Below are positions 16,607 to 62,600 of a DNA stretch of 64,000 bases, piece after piece. How positions within the stretch are numbered: the stretch's first letter is position 1; every line of letters begins with the position of its first letter. The notes below the pieces were generated by a model. It had not been told where the DNA came from and searched no databases. It saw only the letters and a list, made by a program, of their open reading frames with translations. The position numbers were made by a program, and so were the translations under genes. Source of the stretch: Escherichia coli (lineage in GTDB: Bacteria; Pseudomonadota; Gammaproteobacteria; Enterobacterales; Enterobacteriaceae); NCBI RefSeq assembly GCF_050920415.1, contig NZ_CP169309.1. One strand, 5' to 3'.

Positions 16607-16795
16607 GCTTAGATGATAAATGACAGCAGGAATGTGCCCGCCAGAGCGACGACTGAAGCGATAAATGTCGCTGTCGTATAGTATTTATATGTTTCACTGA
16701 GCGTAGCGCCGCAAAATTGTTTCATCAGCCAGAAAAACGAGTCCGTAACGATCGTGCAGCCAATCGCAATAATTTCCGGGCTGATGTCTGGTTAC
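16607..16795 (-). pseudogene. dsdX: 3'-terminal remnant of D-serine permease dsdX (last ~57 codons; 5' part deleted)
   Basis: Reverse strand reads [56 protein letters not shown]-stop, a GntP-family C-terminus; reading frame hits a stop just upstream, so no intact gene. Confidence 0.7.
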
Positions 16796-17047
16796 AGCCA
16801 CAGCACAATGATCCATATTTATATTTTTTCTCCGGGTGGGTGATGCCAGTCGGCATGTTTTACCTACTTGTCTGCATGGTGACTCGTTGGCGAGAACAGA
16901 GGCGGAATTGGTTACAATTGTCCGGGAATTCTTGTTATTTTTTACTGTATTGTCGTGTCGGGTGATAGGACGTTAAGAATATCGCTGGATCTCGCCAGTG
17001 ACGTCTGTTTCTGCTACAGTGCCCGTTTTACGGCAAACGGCTTGGGT

Positions 17048-18043
17048 ATGGCTTCATTAAAGGATGTCGCACGCCTGGCGGGAGTGTCGATGATGACTGT
17101 CTCCCGGGTGATGCATAATGCAGAATCTGTGCGTCCTGCAACGCGTGACCGCGTATTGCAGGCAATCCAAACCCTGAATTATGTTCCTGATCTTTCCGCT
17201 CGTAAGATGCGCGCTCAGGGACGTAAGCCGTCGACTCTCGCCGTGCTGGCGCAGGATACTGCTACCACTCCTTTCTCTGTTGATATTCTGCTTGCCATTG
17301 AACAAACCGCCAGCGAGTTTGGCTGGAATAGTTTTTTAATCAATATTTTTTCTGAAGATGACGCTGCCCGCGCGGCACGTCAGCTGCTTGCCCTCCGTCC
17401 GGATGGCATTATCTATACTACAATGGGACTGAGGCATATCACGCTGCCTGAGTCTCTGCATGGTGAAAATATTGTATTGGCGAACTGTGTGGCGGATGAC
17501 CCAGCGTTACCCAGTTATATCCCTGATGATTACACTGCCCAATATGAAGCAACACAGCATTTGCTCGCGGCGGGCTATCGTCAACCGTTATGCTTCTGGC
17601 TACCGGAAGGTGCGTTGGCAACAGGGTATCGTCGGCAGGGATTTGAGCAGGCCTGGCGTGATGCTGGACGAGATCTGGCTGAGGTGAAACAATTTCACAT
17701 GGCCATAGGTGATGATCACTACACCGATCTCGCAAGTATACTCAATGCCCACTTCCAGTCTGGAAAACCAGATTTTGATGTTCTGATTTGTGGTAACGAT
17801 CGCGCAGCCTTTGTGGCTTATCAGGTTCTTCTGGCGAAGGGGGTACGTATCCCGCAGGATGTCGCCGTAATGGGCTTTGATAATCTGGTTGGCGTCGGGC
17901 ATCTGTTTTTACCGCCGCTGACCACAATTCAGCTTCCACATGACATTATCGGGCGGGAAGCTGCATTGCATATTATTGAAGGTCGTGAAGGGGGAAGGGT
18001 AACGCAGATCCCTTGCCCGCTGTTGCTCCGTTGTTCCACCTGA
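17048..18043 (+). CDS. cscR: LacI-family sucrose operon repressor CscR (start chosen at MASLKDVA)
   Basis: N-terminal LacI HTH plus periplasmic-binding-like domain. Confidence 0.8.
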   Translation: MASLKDVARLAGVSMMTVSRVMHNAESVRPATRDRVLQAIQTLNYVPDLSARKMRAQGRKPSTLAVLAQDTATTPFSVDILLAIEQTASEFGWNSFLINIFSEDDAARAARQLLALRPDGIIYTTMGLRHITLPESLHGENIVLANCVADDPALPSYIPDDYTAQYEATQHLLAAGYRQPLCFWLPEGALATGYRRQGFEQAWRDAGRDLAEVKQFHMAIGDDHYTDLASILNAHFQSGKPDFDVLICGNDRAAFVAYQVLLAKGVRIPQDVAVMGFDNLVGVGHLFLPPLTTIQLPHDIIGREAALHIIEGREGGRVTQIPCPLLLRCST

Positions 18044-18050
18044 TATTATG

Positions 18051-19493
18051 TTACCCCAGTTGCCAGAGTGCTCCATGTTGCAGCACGGCCACTCCGTGGG
18101 CGGCATAGAGCGACAGTTCCCGTTCTTCTGGCTGCGGATAGATTCGGCTACTCATCACAGCTTCCCCGTCGTTAATAAATACTTCCACGGATGATGTATC
18201 GATAAATATCCTTAGGGCGAGCGTGTCACGCTGCGGGAGGGGAATACTACGGTAACCATCTAAATTCTCGTGTGGGTAATACCGCCACAAAACAAGTCGC
18301 TCAGATTGGTTATCAATATACAGCCGCATTCCCGTGCCGAGCTGTAATCCGTAATGTTCGGCATCGCTGTTCTTCAGAGCCCAGTGCAACTGAATCTCAA
18401 CCGCTTGCGCGTTTTCCTGCAAAACATATTTGTTGCTGATTGTGTGGGGAGAGATTGATTGATGCTGCTGGCGTAACGACTCAGCTTCGTGTACCGGGCG
18501 TTGTAGGAGTTTGCCATTGCTCTCTGAAAGCTCGCGCGCCAGCGTCATGCAGCCTGCCCAGCCTTCACGTTTTGAGGGCATTGGCGATTCCCACATATCC
18601 ATCCAGCCGATAACAATACGCCGACCATCCTTCGCTAAAAAGCTTTGTGGTGCATAAAAGTCATGCCCATTATCAAGTTCAGTAAAATGCCCGGATTGTG
18701 CAAAAAGTCGTCCTGGCGACCATATTCCGGGTATTACACCACTTTGAAAGCGATTTCGATAATTGTATCCCTCGGCATTCATTCCCTGCGGGGAAAACAT
18801 CAGATAATGTTGATCGCCAAGGCTGAAAAAGTCCGGACATTCCCACATATAGCTTTCACCCGCATCAGCGTGGGCCAGTACGCGATCGAAAGTCCATTCA
18901 CGCAATGAACTGCCGCGATAAAGCAGGATCTGTCCCGTGTTGCCTGGGTCTTTCGCCCCGACTACCATCCACCAGGTGTCGGCTTCACGCCACACTTTAG
19001 GATCGCGGAAGTGCATGATTCCTTCTGGTGGAGTGAGGATCACACCTTGTTTCTCGAAATGAATACCATCCCGGCTGGTAGCCAGACATTGTACTTCACG
19101 AATTGCATCGTCATTACCTGCACCATCGAGCCAGACGTGGCCGGTGTAGATAAGTGAGAGGACACCATTGTCATCAACAGCACTACCTGAAAAACACCCG
19201 TCTTTGTCATTCTCGTCTCCTGGCGCTAGCGCAATAGGCTCGTGCTGCCAGTGGATCATATCGTCGCTGGTGGCATGTCCCCAGTGCATTGGCCCCCAGT
19301 GTTCGCTCATCGGGTGATGCTGATAAAACGCGTGATAACGATTGTTAAACCAGATCAGGCCGTTTGGATCGTTCATCCACCCGGCTGGAGGCGCGAGGTG
19401 AAAATGGGGATAAAAAGTATTCCCCCGGCGCTCGTGAAGTTTTGCTAGTGCGTTTTGCGCCGCATGCAATCGAGATTGCGTCATTTTAATCAT
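18051..19493 (-). CDS. cscA: sucrose-6-phosphate hydrolase / invertase CscA (GH32)
   Basis: GH32 motifs WMNDPNG, FRDP, WECPD. Confidence 0.85.
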   Translation of the reverse strand: MIKMTQSRLHAAQNALAKLHERRGNTFYPHFHLAPPAGWMNDPNGLIWFNNRYHAFYQHHPMSEHWGPMHWGHATSDDMIHWQHEPIALAPGDENDKDGCFSGSAVDDNGVLSLIYTGHVWLDGAGNDDAIREVQCLATSRDGIHFEKQGVILTPPEGIMHFRDPKVWREADTWWMVVGAKDPGNTGQILLYRGSSLREWTFDRVLAHADAGESYMWECPDFFSLGDQHYLMFSPQGMNAEGYNYRNRFQSGVIPGIWSPGRLFAQSGHFTELDNGHDFYAPQSFLAKDGRRIVIGWMDMWESPMPSKREGWAGCMTLARELSESNGKLLQRPVHEAESLRQQHQSISPHTISNKYVLQENAQAVEIQLHWALKNSDAEHYGLQLGTGMRLYIDNQSERLVLWRYYPHENLDGYRSIPLPQRDTLALRIFIDTSSVEVFINDGEAVMSSRIYPQPEERELSLYAAHGVAVLQHGALWQLG

Positions 19494-19518
19494 CCTGGTT
19501 AAGCAAATTTGGTGAATT

Positions 19519-19530
19519 GTTAACGTTAAC
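19519..19530. promoter_or_regulatory. perfect 12-bp palindrome GTTAACGTTAAC, candidate CscR operator 1
   Basis: Palindrome in cscA-cscK divergent intergenic region. Confidence 0.5.
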
Positions 19531-19563
19531 TTTTATAAAAATAAAGCCCCTTATCTTTATAAA

Positions 19564-19579
19564 TGTGATTAATATCACA
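19564..19579. promoter_or_regulatory. candidate CRP site TGTGA-N6-TCACA
   Basis: Perfect match to CRP consensus half-sites. Confidence 0.5.
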
Positions 19580-19582
19580 AAT

Positions 19583-19594
19583 GTTAACGTTAAC
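19583..19594. promoter_or_regulatory. second copy of GTTAACGTTAAC palindrome, candidate CscR operator 2
   Basis: Identical palindrome 64 bp from the first. Confidence 0.5.
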
Positions 19595-19699
19595 TATGAC
19601 GTTTTGTGATCGAATGTGCATGTTTTAGTAAATCCATGACGATTTTGCGAAAAAGAGGTTTATCACTATGCGTAAGTCAGATGAATTTGAGGGAAAAAA

Positions 19700-20614
19700 A
19701 TGTCAGCCAAAGTATGGGTTTTAGGGGATGCGGTTGTCGATCTCTTGCCTGAATCAGACGGGCGCCTACTGCCTTGTCCTGGCGGCGCGCCAGCTAACGT
19801 TGCGGTGGGAATCGCCAGATTAGGCGGAATAAGTGGGTTTATAGGCCGGGTGGGTGATGATCCTTTTGGCGCGTTAATGCAAAGAACGCTGCTAACGGAG
19901 GGAGTCGATATCACGTATCTGAAGCAGGATGAATGGCACCGAACATCCACGGTGCTTGTCGATCTGAACGATCAGGGGGAACGTTCATTTACGTTTATGG
20001 TCCGCCCTGGTGCCGATCTTTTTTTAGAGACGACTGACTTGCCCTTCTGGCGACATGGCGAATGGTTACATCTCTGTTCTATTGCGTTGTCTGCTGAACC
20101 TTCGCGTACCAGCGCATTTACTGCGATGACGGCGATCCGGCATGCCGGAGGTTTTGTCAGCTTCGATCCCAATATTCGTGAAGATCTGTGGCAAGACGAG
20201 CATTTGCTCCGCTTGTGTTTGCGACAGGCGCTACAACTGGCGGATGTCGTCAAGCTCTCGGAAGAAGAATGGCGACTTATCAGCGGAAAAACACAGAACG
20301 ATCGGGATATATGTGCTCTGGCAAAAGAGTATGAGATCGCCATGCTGTTGGTGACTAAAGGTGCAGAAGGGGTGGTGGTCTGTTATCGAGGACAAGTTCA
20401 CCATTTTGCTGGAATGTCTGTGAATTGTGTCGATAGCACGGGGGCGGGAGATGCGTTCGTTGCCGGGTTACTCACAGGTCTTTCCTCTACGGGATTAGAG
20501 ACCGATGAGAGAGAAATGCGACGAATTATCGATCTCGCTCAACGTTGTGGAGCGCTTGCAGTAACGGCGAAAGGGGCAATGACAGCGCTGCCATGTCGAC
20601 AAGATCTGGAATAG
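19700..20614 (+). CDS. cscK: fructokinase CscK (PfkB family)
   Basis: PfkB motifs GGAPANVA and DSTGAGDAF. Confidence 0.85.
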   Translation: MSAKVWVLGDAVVDLLPESDGRLLPCPGGAPANVAVGIARLGGISGFIGRVGDDPFGALMQRTLLTEGVDITYLKQDEWHRTSTVLVDLNDQGERSFTFMVRPGADLFLETTDLPFWRHGEWLHLCSIALSAEPSRTSAFTAMTAIRHAGGFVSFDPNIREDLWQDEHLLRLCLRQALQLADVVKLSEEEWRLISGKTQNDRDICALAKEYEIAMLLVTKGAEGVVVCYRGQVHHFAGMSVNCVDSTGAGDAFVAGLLTGLSSTGLETDEREMRRIIDLAQRCGALAVTAKGAMTALPCRQDLE

Positions 20615-20685
20615 TGAGAAATAAACGGCGAGGCCGTTCTTGTCTCTGAATAGGACGTGAATATTTTAACGACAGGCAGGTAATT

Positions 20686-21933
20686 ATGGCACTGAATATA
20701 CCATTCAGAAATGTGTACTATCGTTTTGCATCCAGTTACTCATTTCTCTTTTTTATTTCCTGGTCGCTGTGGTGGTCGTTATACGCTATTTGGCTGAAAG
20801 GACATCTAGGGTTGACTGGGACGGAATTAGGTACACTTTATTCGGTCAACCAGTTTACCAGTATTCTATTTATGATGGTCTACGGCATCGTCCAGGATAA
20901 ACTCGGTCTGAAGAAACCGCTTATCTGGTGTATGAGTTTCATCCTGGTCTTGACCGGACCGTTTATGATTTACGTTTATGAACCGTTACTGCAAAGCAAT
21001 TTTTCTGTAGGTCTAATTTTGGGGGCGCTCTTTTTTGGCTTGGGGTATCTGGCGGGCTGCGGTCTGCTTGATAGCTTCACCGAAAAAATGGCACGAAATT
21101 TTCATTTCGAATATGGAACAGCGCGCGCCTGGGGATCTTTTGGCTATGCGATTGGCGCGTTCTTTGCTGGCATATTTTTCAGTATCAGTCCCCATATCAA
21201 CTTCTGGTTGGTTTCGCTATTTGGCGCTGTATTTATGATGATCAACATGCGTTTTAAATATCAGGATCAGCAGTGCGTAGCGGCAGATGCGGGAGGGGTA
21301 AAAAAAGAGGATTTTATTGCAGTTTTCAAGGACCGAAACTTCTGGATTTTCGTCATATTTATTGTGGGGACGTGGTCTTTCTATAACATTTTTGATCAAC
21401 AGCTCTTTCCTGTTTTTTATGCAGGTTTATTCGAATCACACGATGTAGGAACGCGCCTGTATGGTTATCTCAACTCATTCCAGGTTGTACTCGAAGCGCT
21501 GTGCATGGCCATTATTCCTTTCTTTGTTAATCGGGTAGGGCCAAAAAATGCATTACTTATCGGTGTTGTGATTATGGCGTTGCGTATTCTTTCCTGCGCA
21601 CTGTTCGTTAATCCCTGGATTATTTCATTAGTGAAGCTTTTACATGCCATTGAGGTTCCACTGTGTGTCATTTCCGTCTTCAAATACAGCGTGGCAAACT
21701 TTGATAAACGCCTGTCGTCGACGATCTTTCTGATTGGTTTTCAAATTGCCAGTTCGTTGGGGATTGTGTTGCTTTCAACGCCGACTGGAATACTTTTTGA
21801 CCATGCAGGTTACCAGACGGTTTTCTTCGTAATTTCGGGTATTGTCTGCCTGATGTTGTTATTTGGCATTTTCTTCCTGAGTAAAAAACGTGAGCAAATG
21901 GTGATGGAAACGCCTGTACCTTCTGCAATATAG
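20686..21933 (+). CDS. cscB: sucrose:H+ symporter CscB (MFS, LacY-like)
   Basis: 415 aa 12-TMS MFS permease. Confidence 0.85.
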   Translation: MALNIPFRNVYYRFASSYSFLFFISWSLWWSLYAIWLKGHLGLTGTELGTLYSVNQFTSILFMMVYGIVQDKLGLKKPLIWCMSFILVLTGPFMIYVYEPLLQSNFSVGLILGALFFGLGYLAGCGLLDSFTEKMARNFHFEYGTARAWGSFGYAIGAFFAGIFFSISPHINFWLVSLFGAVFMMINMRFKYQDQQCVAADAGGVKKEDFIAVFKDRNFWIFVIFIVGTWSFYNIFDQQLFPVFYAGLFESHDVGTRLYGYLNSFQVVLEALCMAIIPFFVNRVGPKNALLIGVVIMALRILSCALFVNPWIISLVKLLHAIEVPLCVISVFKYSVANFDKRLSSTIFLIGFQIASSLGIVLLSTPTGILFDHAGYQTVFFVISGIVCLMLLFGIFFLSKKREQMVMETPVPSAI

Positions 21934-22363
21934 ACGTAAACTCTTTCCGGTTGTTGTCGATAGCTCTATATCCCTCAACCGGAAAATAATAATACCAAAA
22001 TGCTTAGCGCGGCTAATAATCGCCTAATCCAAACGCCTCATTCATGTTCTGGAACAGCCGCTCAAATGTACTCAGGATACGCGGTTCGCTGATTTCCAGG
22101 AAATTGTCGTAATTCAGCGACCTGTCCCGTGTATCACGGGCCTGCTAATCCATCAAGGAATGCATTGCGGAGTGAAGTATCGAGTCAAGCCAGATTTCGC
22201 GATCAGGATTCTGTGTGATGATTACATTGCCAGGCCCGGGGCTGTTTAGTCATCGCCGCACAGTGCTGAGATTTCAACCTGTTGCAGGGAAAATGAGTAG
22301 ATTTAGGGCAAGTGTGCTGCCAAACCCAACTTTTACGCGGGGAAGGTAGATTTCGTTGGAAGG

Positions 22364-22383
22364 ATAAATGGTGTCCCCTGCAG
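22364..22383. repeat. prophage att core, torI-proximal copy (ATAAATGGTGTCCCCTGCAG)
   Basis: Exact 20-bp direct repeat of 62521-62540, which covers the 3' end of argW. Confidence 0.8.
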
Positions 22384-22456
22384 ACATCTACTTGAAGCGA
22401 CAGGGGATTGATTGGAATGGTGTTTTTTAGATGTGAGAAATATTTTACCCGCTATT

Positions 22457-22657
22457 TTACCCATTGGCGCGGCTTAAGAGCTTATTTTTGAATTCACAAT
22501 GGTCACGATATAACCATCTTGCTCGCCCGTGGATAACTTTGGCTTTTGGCAGGTCGCCGGACTTAATCCGGTCATAGATGAAGGTTTTACCAAAGCCAGT
22601 ATCGGCCATGATGAATTTCAAATCAACCAGTGAATCAGGCTGTAGTTCGTGTTGCAT
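22457..22657 (-). CDS. torI: TorI-like excisionase / recombination directionality factor (AlpA-Xis family)
   Basis: 66 aa; recognised as KplE1 TorI; sits at prophage end opposite the integrase. Confidence 0.8.
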   Translation of the reverse strand: MQHELQPDSLVDLKFIMADTGFGKTFIYDRIKSGDLPKAKVIHGRARWLYRDHCEFKNKLLSRANG

Positions 22658-22702
22658 GAGTGCTATCTCCGAATAGGGAATCGAACCTGCAAATCAGGCA
22701 AT

Positions 22703-22782: not shown

Positions 22783-23127
22783 TTAGTCCTTGCGTAACTC
22801 GCTAATTCTTCTGTAAGTCTCTGGTGCTTTGTTTCCGTGTATCTTCATTTCAGACTTCAACAGAGCAACGAGGGAATCCCATTCGTTGAGGATGCCTTTG
22901 AATGCCGGAACGCGCTTTGCAACCTTGTTGAATGAATCTCTGATTTCTGGAATCTGCTCAACAAGTGCAACGCATCGTCTGAAATCGGCTGCGTCATGGG
23001 GAGCGCCGAAGCTATGACCATAGATATTCTTTTTCAGTCCACATGCGATTGAGGCAAGAGTTGCGCTACTGATGCCAACATCGCCAGTCGATTGCCATTT
23101 CAAAACCTTCATAGCCAAATCTGACAT
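22783..23127 (-). CDS. hypothetical early-left (ea-region) protein, 114 aa
   Basis: ORF in leftward operon; no family recognised. Confidence 0.45.
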   Translation of the reverse strand: MSDLAMKVLKWQSTGDVGISSATLASIACGLKKNIYGHSFGAPHDAADFRRCVALVEQIPEIRDSFNKVAKRVPAFKGILNEWDSLVALLKSEMKIHGNKAPETYRRISELRKD

Positions 23128-38058: not shown

Positions 38059-38085
38059 GCCCTGAGTTAATAGCTGGGGCTTTTT
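38059..38085 (+). terminator. hairpin plus T5 downstream of pR' (candidate tR')
   Basis: GCCCTG...CTGGGGC stem followed by TTTTT. Confidence 0.4.
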
Positions 38086-38383
38086 GCGTTTTAAGCACGA
38101 CCTTTCTGAAAGCGCATCAAACCAAATACCAGACAGACCAAAATAATCACCTTATCCGCTGTGGCTACGGTGCGGTGTGCTTTGCATAAAAGAAAACCAG
38201 CTCAATGGCTGGCTTCGTGAAAGCGGGTGGCAAGAGGTTGCGCTAACAACCTCATGCCGTTTTGCCCGTGCATATCGGTCACGAACAAATCTGATTACTA
38301 AACACAGTAGCCTGGATTTGTTCTATCAGTAATCGACCTTATTCCTAATTAAATAGAGCAAATCCCCTTATTGGGGGTAAGAC

Positions 38384-38707
38384 ATGAAGATGCCAGAAAA
38401 ACATGACCTGTTAGCCGCCATTCTCGCGGCAAAGGAACAAGGCATCGGGGCAATCCTTGCGTTTGCAATGGCGTACCTTCGCGGCAGATATAATGGCGGT
38501 GCGTTTACAAAAACAGTAATCGACGCAACGATGTGCGCCATTATCGCCTGGTTCATTCGTGACCTTCTCGACTTCGCCGGACTAAGTAGCAATCTCGCTT
38601 ATATAACGAGCGTGTTCATCGGCTACATCGGTACTGACTCGATTGGTTCGCTTATCAAACGCTTCGCTGCTAAAAAAGCCGGAGTAGAAGATGGTGGAAA
38701 TCAATAA
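38384..38707 (+). CDS. S: holin/antiholin S (dual-start MKMPEK)
   Basis: 107 aa, matches lambda S. Confidence 0.95.
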
Positions 38708-56537: not shown

Positions 56538-57439
56538 ATAAAGAAGATGGCTTTAAGTGCTCCTTCTGCTGAAAGCCTCAGCATGAATGTGCAATGTTGA
56601 TTCGCGCTAAAGCAGAGATATTTATCTGTAATGGTTGTGTATCTCTTTGCGTTGAAGCGATGGGGAAAGAGTTAAATTCTAGAAAAACAATGTTAGATGT
56701 GAGCATAAAACAGTGAAGCCCCAACTGCGGTAACAGTCAGGGCTTCGGTATCAACAAAACTTACGAGGTATTATTGATATGTCAAGCTTAGCAAAGTCAA
56801 CTGTAAATTGCACTAATAGCATCATCATTTCTGACGTCAAGATTCATATGGATTCAGAGGGTCGTTACTCGCTTAATGACCTTCATGTAGCGTCTGGAAA
56901 GGAGGAAAAACATCAGCCAGCTTTCTTCATGCGTAGAAATGAAACTATTGAATTGATTAATGAAATTTTTAATTCTGCGGATATGCAGAATAAGAATCCC
57001 GTCATTTCTAAGAAAGGTAGATATGGTGGAACATACGTGTGCAAGGAGCTTGTTTACTCCTACGCCATGTGGATTAGCGCAGCATTTGCGCTGAAGGTTA
57101 TCCGCGCATATGACGCAATGGTTACTGCCACACAAGAGAGGAAGGCTATTGGCGGTAAAACTTCAGTAGCTGAACGCACGCCGCTACGCGATGCAGTAAA
57201 CATGCTGGTAGGAAAGAAAGGACTTCGCTATGACGATGCATACAATATGGTTCATCAGCGTTTTGGTATTGACAGCATTGATGAACTTTCAATTGAACAA
57301 ATCCCGCTGGCCGTAGAGTACATCCACAGGGTAGTGCTTGAAGGTGAGTAGACTGGCCCCCTGAATCTCCAGACAACCAGTATCACTTAAATAAGTGATA
57401 GTCTTAATACTAGTTTTTAGACTAGTCATTGGAGAACAG

Positions 57440-61206: not shown

Positions 61207-62400
61207 TCACTCCACCTTTTCATCAATCCAATCCGCCCACCACTGCATCATTTCTCTGCGCTTATCGAGATACTGAGCATGGTTGTAAATTCCGCGCACA
61301 GATCCGCCGTTGGCATGTGCCAGTTGCACTTCAATAGCATCAGCAGGCCATTCGTGCTCGTTCATAATCGTGCTGAATTCATGCCTGAATCCGTGACCGC
61401 TTTCCAGACCTTCATAGCCGATTTGTTTGATCACAAGCAGTACCGCGTTCTCGCAGATTGGCTTCTTCTTATCGTTGCGCCCGGCAAAAACAAACTCTGA
61501 TACTGGTTTGGTGATTGAGCTTAGCGTAGTGAGAAGTTCAACCACCTGGTCCGACATCGGGACAACATGAATCTTGCGTCCCTTCATCACACTGGCGTCG
61601 ATAGTGATAATCCTGTTTTCAAAATCGACGTTCTTCCATTGCATGGAACGAAGCTCTTTCGTTCTTAGGGCTGTGTAGCGTAAAACTTTGGTCGCAATGA
61701 GCGATACGATACTTCCTGAAAATGTTGCCAGTGCTTTGTTGAATGCAGGGATCTGGTCTGCAGGAAGAAACGGGAAGTTCTTCTTGCGGTATCCCTTCAT
61801 GGCGTCAGCAAGGTCAGGTGCCGGGTTATATTTAGCCCTTCCGGTGACAATAGCGTAACGGAAAACCTCGCCGCATCTTCTGCGTGCTTTGTTGGCTCGC
61901 TCCATTGCACCGCGATCTTCAAATCTGCGGATTACTTCCAGAAGTTGCATCGGCTCAATATCCTGAATTTCAAGGCTGCCGATGATAGGTAAAATGTCGT
62001 CATCAAACATTTTGGCAAGTTCAGTTGCATAGCCTACTGACCAGACTTGCTTCTTGTGCTCGTACCATTCCTTGTAAATCGCACTAAAGGAATTGTTGTT
62101 AGACGAAGCCTTTTTCGCCTTTACCGGATCGATACCAACCGAGATGTCTTTCCTCGCAGTCCATGCTTTATCCCTTGCCTCCTGCAAAGTCATAAGCGGA
62201 TATTTTCCGACGGTCAGGATTTTCTCCTTACCGTCAATCTTGTAGCGAAGCTGCCATACCTTTTTCCCTGACACAGGGACATAAAGGTACAGGCCATTAC
62301 CATCGAGAAGGCGGTATGGTTTTTCTTTCGGCTTTGCTGCTTCAATCTGCTTAACGGTGAGCATGGGTAAAAATCCGGTGGGTAAAATTATTTTATCCAC
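61207..62400 (-). CDS. intS: tyrosine integrase (IntS / KplE1-Sf6 type); likely start is the internal ATG at 62364
   Basis: C-terminal catalytic signature R..HGFRHEFST..Y; adjacent to argW. Confidence 0.9.
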   Translation of the reverse strand: MDKIILPTGFLPMLTVKQIEAAKPKEKPYRLLDGNGLYLYVPVSGKKVWQLRYKIDGKEKILTVGKYPLMTLQEARDKAWTARKDISVGIDPVKAKKASSNNNSFSAIYKEWYEHKKQVWSVGYATELAKMFDDDILPIIGSLEIQDIEPMQLLEVIRRFEDRGAMERANKARRRCGEVFRYAIVTGRAKYNPAPDLADAMKGYRKKNFPFLPADQIPAFNKALATFSGSIVSLIATKVLRYTALRTKELRSMQWKNVDFENRIITIDASVMKGRKIHVVPMSDQVVELLTTLSSITKPVSEFVFAGRNDKKKPICENAVLLVIKQIGYEGLESGHGFRHEFSTIMNEHEWPADAIEVQLAHANGGSVRGIYNHAQYLDKRREMMQWWADWIDEKVE

Positions 62401-62520: not shown

Positions 62521-62540
62521 ATAAATGGTGTCCCCTGCAG
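62521..62540. repeat. prophage att core, integrase/argW-proximal copy
   Basis: Exact repeat of 22364-22383. Confidence 0.8.
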
Positions 62541-62600
62541 GAATCGAACCTGCAATTAGCCCTTAGGAGGGGCTCGTTATATCCATTTAACTAAGAGGAC
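62526..62600 (-). tRNA. argW: tRNA-Arg (argW)
   Basis: Reverse strand reads GTCCTCTTAGTTAAATGGATATAACGAGCCCCTCCTAAGGGCTAATTGCAGGTTCGATTCCTGCAGGGGACACCA, 75 nt with T-arm and CCA end. Confidence 0.9.

Follow-up and report, generated by a model that had tools for sequence, protein, structure and literature searches.

A decayed DUF4942 gene fragment between cscB and argW in Escherichia coli, probably a remnant of an old CP4-type island

Introduction

The variable region between argW and dsdCXA is a known recombination hot spot of Escherichia coli, and in two reports on it the csc genes are described as replacing dsdC and part of dsdX beside argW (PMC11251922, PMC3032704). In K-12, the attR of prophage CPS-53 (KplE1), pawZ, has the same architecture as the attachment site analyzed here, with the same 15-nt argW-derived core beside torI. 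The chromosomal sides of the two sites are unlike, however: in K-12 the core is followed by 95 bp and dsdC, whereas here an island relic and then cscB follow, and the two flanks are without similarity. A second group of elements, the argW islands with a P4-type integrase, uses the same att core, and the 70 nt after their core are 47–50% identical to the DNA analyzed here at the same offset. Unlike these islands, the present locus lacks the integrase, the cargo, and the distal direct repeat, and the similarity is too low for a recent copy. Finally, CP4-57- and CP4-44-like islands carry a DUF4942 gene (PF13708) that is homologous to our locus over approximately aa 33–153, and the orientation of the homologous piece relative to the tRNA gene fits that of a distal island gene. 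Unlike the CP4-type islands, our locus retains an internal fragment only, and the neighboring island genes are all gone.

The primary papers on the argW–dsdCXA/csc variable region are reportedly Jahreis et al. 2002 and Moritz & Welch 2006. Within the accessible literature, a scope that these two locus papers lie outside, the content of the spacer between cscB and argW is not described. We analyzed this spacer, which lies at the same hot spot, in a 64,000-nt stretch of an E. coli chromosome (hereafter, the window). The segment under study, positions 21934–22363, is the stretch from the cscB stop codon to the attR core of the resident prophage. We conclude that these 430 bp between cscB and the argW att site are probably nonfunctional fossil DNA, for the most part a decayed DUF4942 fragment.

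Results

Layout of the Locus and Its Open Reading Frames

The left boundary of the segment is the stop codon of cscB, the sucrose permease gene (20686–21933, plus strand), a 415-aa ORF that is annotated as cscB or as an oligosaccharide MFS transporter in the matching RefSeq genomes. The ORF list places cscK at 19700–20614 on the plus strand and cscA at 18051–19493 on the minus strand. To the right of the segment lies the att core TGGTGTCCCCTGCAG (22369–22383, plus strand), the reverse complement of the argW 3′ end and the attR of the resident prophage. An exact second copy of the 15-nt core, at 62526–62540, is found within the 3′ end of argW itself, a tRNA-Arg(CCU) gene (62526–62600, minus strand; called by ARAGORN and Rfam) that contains the attL core. 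The prophage of ~40 kb is bracketed by torI (22457–22657, minus strand) and an IntS homologue (61207–62400, minus strand), both just inside the att repeats, and P22-like phages such as IME10 match the left end of its DNA.

A first-pass annotation of the window had stated that the segment holds no ORF of 60 aa or more with a start codon, and this is correct: the longest ORF starting with ATG, GTG, or TTG has 44 aa (22215–22349, plus strand). It had also described a frame that is open for about 80 codons from 22166 and runs into the att core. On the plus strand, that frame spans only 57 codons (22176–22346) and ends 20 nt short of the core; an open frame of the described length that crosses the core exists, but on the minus strand only (22206–22451, 82 codons). 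The 82-codon stop-free run is at chance level, 33% of 2000 shuffles of 21934–22460 matching or exceeding its length, and the second-longest run (22028–22246, plus strand, 73 codons) is the antisense of the relic described below. As the plus-strand open frame is a chance-level run, it gives no evidence for the idea it had prompted, namely that the segment may be a remnant of a displaced gene or of an older integration event. The idea itself was borne out by homology: approximately 300 of the 430 bp derive from the interior of a minus-strand DUF4942 gene and are degraded, and the 70 nt at the core (22299–22368) resemble the attL arm of living islands that integrate at argW.

An Internal Piece of a DUF4942 Gene

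Searching the window with an intact DUF4942 gene region (L007), nhmmer aligned 22015–22317 with an E value of 1e-38, and two sub-blocks of the alignment matched separately, 22015–22249 with E = 5e-36 and the upstream block 22250–22330 with E = 9.5e-6. The relic (22015–22317, minus strand) corresponds to approximately aa 33–153 of a 281-aa protein, is truncated at both ends, and has an internal deletion of ~55 nt. Its best-preserved block (22022–22249, minus strand) is ungapped and in frame and represents aa 76–151; aligned by tblastn with the intact 281-aa protein, it shows 43 of 76 residues identical (57%, E = 5e-23) and is interrupted by a single in-frame stop. Against Pfam PF13708, its conceptual translation reaches 32.8 bits (gathering cut-off 25; E = 7e-8) but covers only profile positions 5–62 of 190. 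In the BLASTN comparison that the first-pass annotation had proposed, query positions 97–298 are 73–78% identical to DUF4942 genes found at other E. coli loci.

The relic is at least 22% diverged in DNA from each of the intact E. coli DUF4942 copies found. Its translation has no closer intact homologue in the protein database, where the matches are the same short E. coli stubs of 44–131 aa. The segment could be read as ordinary intergenic DNA with a chance resemblance to a gene, as it is without a long ORF, has open frames at chance level only, and lacks regulatory motif matches. That reading is ruled out by the E values of 5e-23 and 1e-38 and by a Pfam score above the gathering threshold, and we regard it as having practically no chance of being right.

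Decay of the Relic

The best-preserved block is interrupted by an in-frame TAG stop at 22145–22147 (minus strand; translation ...SLMD*QARD...) that is specific to the window haplotype. In the majority haplotype, the stop occurs at another place (PRI*STF), and in that of strain 536 this block is free of stops. Between haplotypes, substitutions in the relic are spread over codon positions 1, 2, and 3 as 6, 6, and 7, and the differing codons comprise 11 nonsynonymous and 6 synonymous cases; together with the haplotype-specific stops, these counts give no sign of purifying selection on the DUF4942 frame. The intact frame of ~281 aa with a start and a stop codon is likewise missing, given the TAG, the ~55-nt deletion, and the lack of any ORF of 60 aa or more. 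A gap of ~50 nt is common to all three main haplotypes, and the relic is therefore older than their split. In a divergent E. coli (L012), further deletions have removed most of the relic. To judge from these patterns in the sequences, the relic is a neutrally decaying pseudogene, not a gene.

PGAP labels stubs of 34–50 aa within the relic as "DUF4942 domain-containing protein" or "hypothetical protein," the stub being 34 aa long in the window haplotype and 50 aa long in the majority one. The presence of such RefSeq CDSs in many genomes would fit a functional small protein derived from DUF4942, as would the block 22022–22249 having stayed ungapped and in frame; alternatively, the region might encode a functional RNA, and the relic is co-directional with argW, so that read-through transcription is conceivable. 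A functional protein is, however, hard to reconcile with stops that differ by haplotype, a divergence uniform over codon positions, and a product covering less than a third of the Pfam profile, and the deletion of most of the relic in L012 speaks against both a protein and an RNA. Scans for promoters and terminators found no promoter-like site or regulatory motif in the segment, and Rfam 15 gave no match in 21800–22500 even at E ≤ 1. At the gathering score, Rfam found nothing in the whole window besides the tRNA and a sar RNA, and no unusual folding energy was seen downstream of argW. We consider a functional product very improbable and regard the short CDSs annotated here in RefSeq as stubs of a pseudogene.

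A Probable attL Arm on the argW Side and Living Islands at argW

Between the relic and the core lies a stretch (22318–22368, minus strand) that is probably a diverged attL arm of an island with a P4-type integrase, that is, of the CP4 type; this assignment draws on sequence similarity measured over 22299–22368. Anchored at the core and aligned without gaps, these 70 nt agree at 33–35 of 70 positions (47–50%) with the attL arm that the argW island has in L020 and L021, and this holds for the three main haplotypes. Such identity was reached by 1–5 of 20000 shuffles (p ~1e-4), and the controls, the KplE1 attL arm and the K-12 flank, were at chance level with 17–22 of 70. The similarity, at 33–35 of 70, is short and diverged, and ~19 nt of it fall within the low-confidence end of the relic's nhmmer alignment.

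A P4-type integrase and the arm directly follow argW in 266 of the 5426 E. coli genomes, for example in strains wlxctx60, Ecol_743, and ARS-C301. In wlxctx60, the argW island carries antirestriction, RadC, DUF987/YeeT, and YeeU genes co-directional with argW, and the relic, co-directional with argW and with its 5′ end facing it, has the same orientation as this CP4 module. In the intact CP4-type islands inspected, DUF4942 comes at the end, preceded by cbtA, DUF5983, and DUF957; a co-directional CP4 module with a distal DUF4942 gene, as expected of such an island, is the reference arrangement in L007, L008, and L020. The segment has the position expected of an island at a tRNA 3′ end, abutting argW in prophage-free strains and the duplicated core (22369–22383) where the prophage is present. 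No integrase homology was found in 21934–22368, and only ~50 nt of arm-like sequence separate the core from the relic. Two present-day argW islands, those of Ecol_743 and ARS-C301, were inspected for an intact DUF4942 gene with the direct repeat behind it; both are mosaic and reach beyond the 20–47 kb covered downstream of the integrase.

The csc Cassette and Its Boundaries

Using a scan for CscB with one genome per species, we found csc loci in Citrobacter amalonaticus. In blastn comparisons with these loci (L013 and L017), homology with the window spans 17007–22001 and then stops. The segment's first 68 bp (21934–22001, plus strand) thus belong to the mobile csc cassette as its 3′ tail, the final part shared with the Citrobacter csc locus, and the relic lies outside the cassette. 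Within 21934–22001, the window allele has no match to the DUF4942 gene region. In both Citrobacter loci (positions 2320–7320 of L013 and L017), the cscRAKB cassette has 81–83% DNA identity and is flanked by ytfT/yjfF-like ABC permease genes on one side and by an MCP-like gene, then fbp and mpl, on the other, a non-tRNA locus. This comparison shows that the csc cassette of ~5 kb moves as a unit with defined ends, and its right boundary, now fixed at ~22001, is of use in engineering or tracing sucrose utilization.

The cassette tail contains a stem-loop 3′ of cscB (21944–21985, plus strand), a perfect 10-bp inverted repeat (21944–21953 and 21976–21985) with the arms TTTCCGGTTG and CAACCGGAAA and a 22-nt loop. 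Its RNA fold has a free energy of −16.6 kcal/mol (z = −3.4), and across four E. coli haplotypes and the two Citrobacter loci the loop is variable but neither arm changes; no covariation was seen in the alignment of these six sequences. The element at 21944–21985 does not look like a Rho-independent terminator, its loop being 22 nt long and its tail AAAAUAAUAAUA being without a U-tract, and a consensus terminator scan made no call there. By its structure and place, it may be an mRNA 3′-end element or a terminator of cscB, and it is likely the sole part of the segment to act.

At the other end of the cassette, where the Citrobacter homology starts at 17005–17007, a second junction of ~213 bp (16792–17004) lies between a dsdX remnant (16609–16791, minus strand) and the cassette start. 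This piece occurs in csc-positive E. coli only (2691 genomes), and it contains neither a core-like repeat nor DUF4942 homology. We considered that the csc insertion had split the DUF4942 gene, and rejected this: by tblastn and nhmmer, the C-terminal half is absent left of the cassette, in 16792–17004. As that half is not found across the cassette, the csc event was a replacement or a deletion and not a clean insertion. Between the relic and the dsdX remnant, no second core-like repeat was found at up to three mismatches.

Distribution among E. coli Genomes

Of 5426 complete E. coli genomes, 2623 contained the full 430 bp in a megablast search, as a single copy in each and always on the chromosome. 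A query extended by the last 400 bp of cscB was found at 80% coverage or more in 2619 of the 5426, and the near equality of the two counts indicates that the junction between cscB and the segment is fixed. The order in the carriers is constant, with cscB and the segment followed by argW or attR, and a prophage at argW is present or absent. In prophage-free csc-positive strains, the segment directly abuts an intact argW, the full gene beginning at the core position. Among the complete E. coli genomes searched, the relic was seen in csc-positive genomes only and never separately; the matches from a plasmid collection were limited to chromosomal copies that had been mis-binned, unrelated permeases, and DUF4942 paralogues of ~77% identity. 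The first-pass annotation had set ordinary conserved intergenic DNA of csc-positive strains against the remnant reading. That description is also true, as the count of 2623 genomes shows, and the two hold together because an old relic became fixed along with the csc locus.

The comparison with the torI–dsdC junction of K-12, which had also been proposed, shows that dsdC lies 95 bp from the core (pawZ) there, and the segment is absent from K-12. A vague likeness of the two junctions in a MAFFT alignment was dropped, as local alignment with shuffles and a comparison anchored at the core show no homology. The csc and dsd haplotypes part exactly at the argW 3′ end.

The window allele is rare: 38 genomes are at least 99% identical to it, and the majority are ~91% identical. 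Between the window and the majority haplotype, the csc genes are 95–96% identical, the csc intergenic spacers 88.7–90.7%, and the segment 90.8%. With an identity like that of csc intergenic DNA, the segment behaves as unconstrained DNA.

Some lineages have changed further. In E. coli O157:H7 AC-5 (L004, 4607–5104), a deletion reaches from mid-cscK to segment position 327, so that cscB and the whole DUF4942 relic are gone, and another phage, with a recombinase-family protein, sits at the argW core. In strain RMDEC465 (L001, 679–3704), which has the window-type allele, cscA has a frameshift and is separated from cscK by an inserted IS4 element, showing ongoing decay of csc in some lineages.

Discussion

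Origin of the Segment

The segment is likely what is left of a gutted old CP4-type island at argW that the csc cassette later came to abut. The sequences show which gene the relic comes from and how far it extends, where it occurs, that its substitutions follow a neutral pattern, where the cassette ends, and that living islands use argW in the matching orientation; the identity of the arm and the order of events, which cannot be proved, are inferred. A CP4-type island would first have integrated at argW, giving the order of tRNA, integrase, cargo, cbtA module, DUF4942, and direct repeat, and an internal deletion would have taken out all DNA between a point just past the attL arm and codon ~33 of DUF4942. 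The cscRAKB cassette would then have occupied the site, with the loss of the distal half of DUF4942, the direct repeat, dsdC, and the 5′ part of dsdX, and the relic would have drifted neutrally along with the csc haplotypes. In the window strain, a P22-like/KplE1-type prophage would later have integrated at the same core; the relic sits beside attR because this prophage used that core. Read from argW on the minus strand, the resulting anatomy would be the core, ~50 nt of arm, the deletion junction, the DUF4942 piece, a second junction, and the 68-bp csc tail with its hairpin. An intact ancestor, with core, arm, integrase, a DUF4942 gene of the relic's lineage, and direct repeat, was not found in the genomes searched.

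The confinement of the relic to csc-positive genomes also fits another origin, in which the DUF4942 fragment was not resident beforehand and hitch-hiked with csc, the donor locus lying beside a CP4-type island or csc being the cargo of an argW island. The csc and dsd haplotypes diverging exactly at the argW core would be expected if the whole csc side had come by site-specific integration, and the gap from the cassette tail to the relic is only ~13 bp. The part of the csc cassette in common with Citrobacter stops at 22001 and lacks the relic, however, and the far junction lies inside dsdX and is without a core-like repeat; moreover, as a DUF4942 gene normally closes the gene order ahead of the direct repeat, csc would lie outside the expected island limits. 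On balance, we find such a joint arrival unlikely. A bolder version, in which relic and arm are all that is left of the element by which the csc regulon reached argW, csc having entered as cargo of an argW-integrating P4-type island or welded to one through integrase-mediated recombination, we regard as doubtful and somewhat speculative; if true, it would explain why csc and dsd diverge exactly at the tRNA 3′ end.

On the preferred reading of a resident island that was gutted before csc arrived, the history of the argW hot spot gains a dated layer, from the island through its deletion and csc to the prophages. As a pseudogene and island relic at a well-known hot spot, the segment is ordinary; it is half-flagged already in RefSeq and implies no new mechanism or function.

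Related Rearrangements and the Prophage Side

In wlxctx60 (L020, NZ_AP045833.1, 22862–38560), tandem elements are found at argW. The P4-type island lies between exact cores at 22922–22936 and 38077–38091, and its direct repeat is followed by a KplE1-type attL arm and ~62 codons of intS. The intS stump is fused, at a core-like site within the gene (TTGCAGGAG/ACAACAG, ~38430–38445), to an attR core, after which comes the cscB–argW segment. Recombination of this secondary core-like site in intS with attR has apparently deleted the prophage, and the strain shows the same kind of relic, an attL arm with a gene stump, made from a KplE1-type prophage.

The 6–7 nt just outside the att core (22362–22368 in the window) vary by haplotype in comparison with L003, L009, L010, and L012. 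The window type and L012 have TTTATCC, which starts like the KplE1 attL arm (TTTATCA), and the majority and strain 536 haplotypes have GATACCC. These haplotype-specific nucleotides may be the footprint of past prophage integration and excision with a crossover outside the 15-nt core.

Within the prophage, a tRNA-T-arm-like string, GGGAATCGAACCTGCAAATCAGG, lies upstream of the torI start at 22670–22700, where ARAGORN calls no tRNA. The attR arm contains, just outside the torI stop, a tandem 10-nt repeat at 22441–22462, two copies of TATTTTACCC spaced 12 nt apart. Rfam places a sar RNA, the P22-type antisense RNA of the immI region, at 56712–56777 on the minus strand; this match marks the argW prophage as P22-like despite its KplE1-type IntS and TorI.
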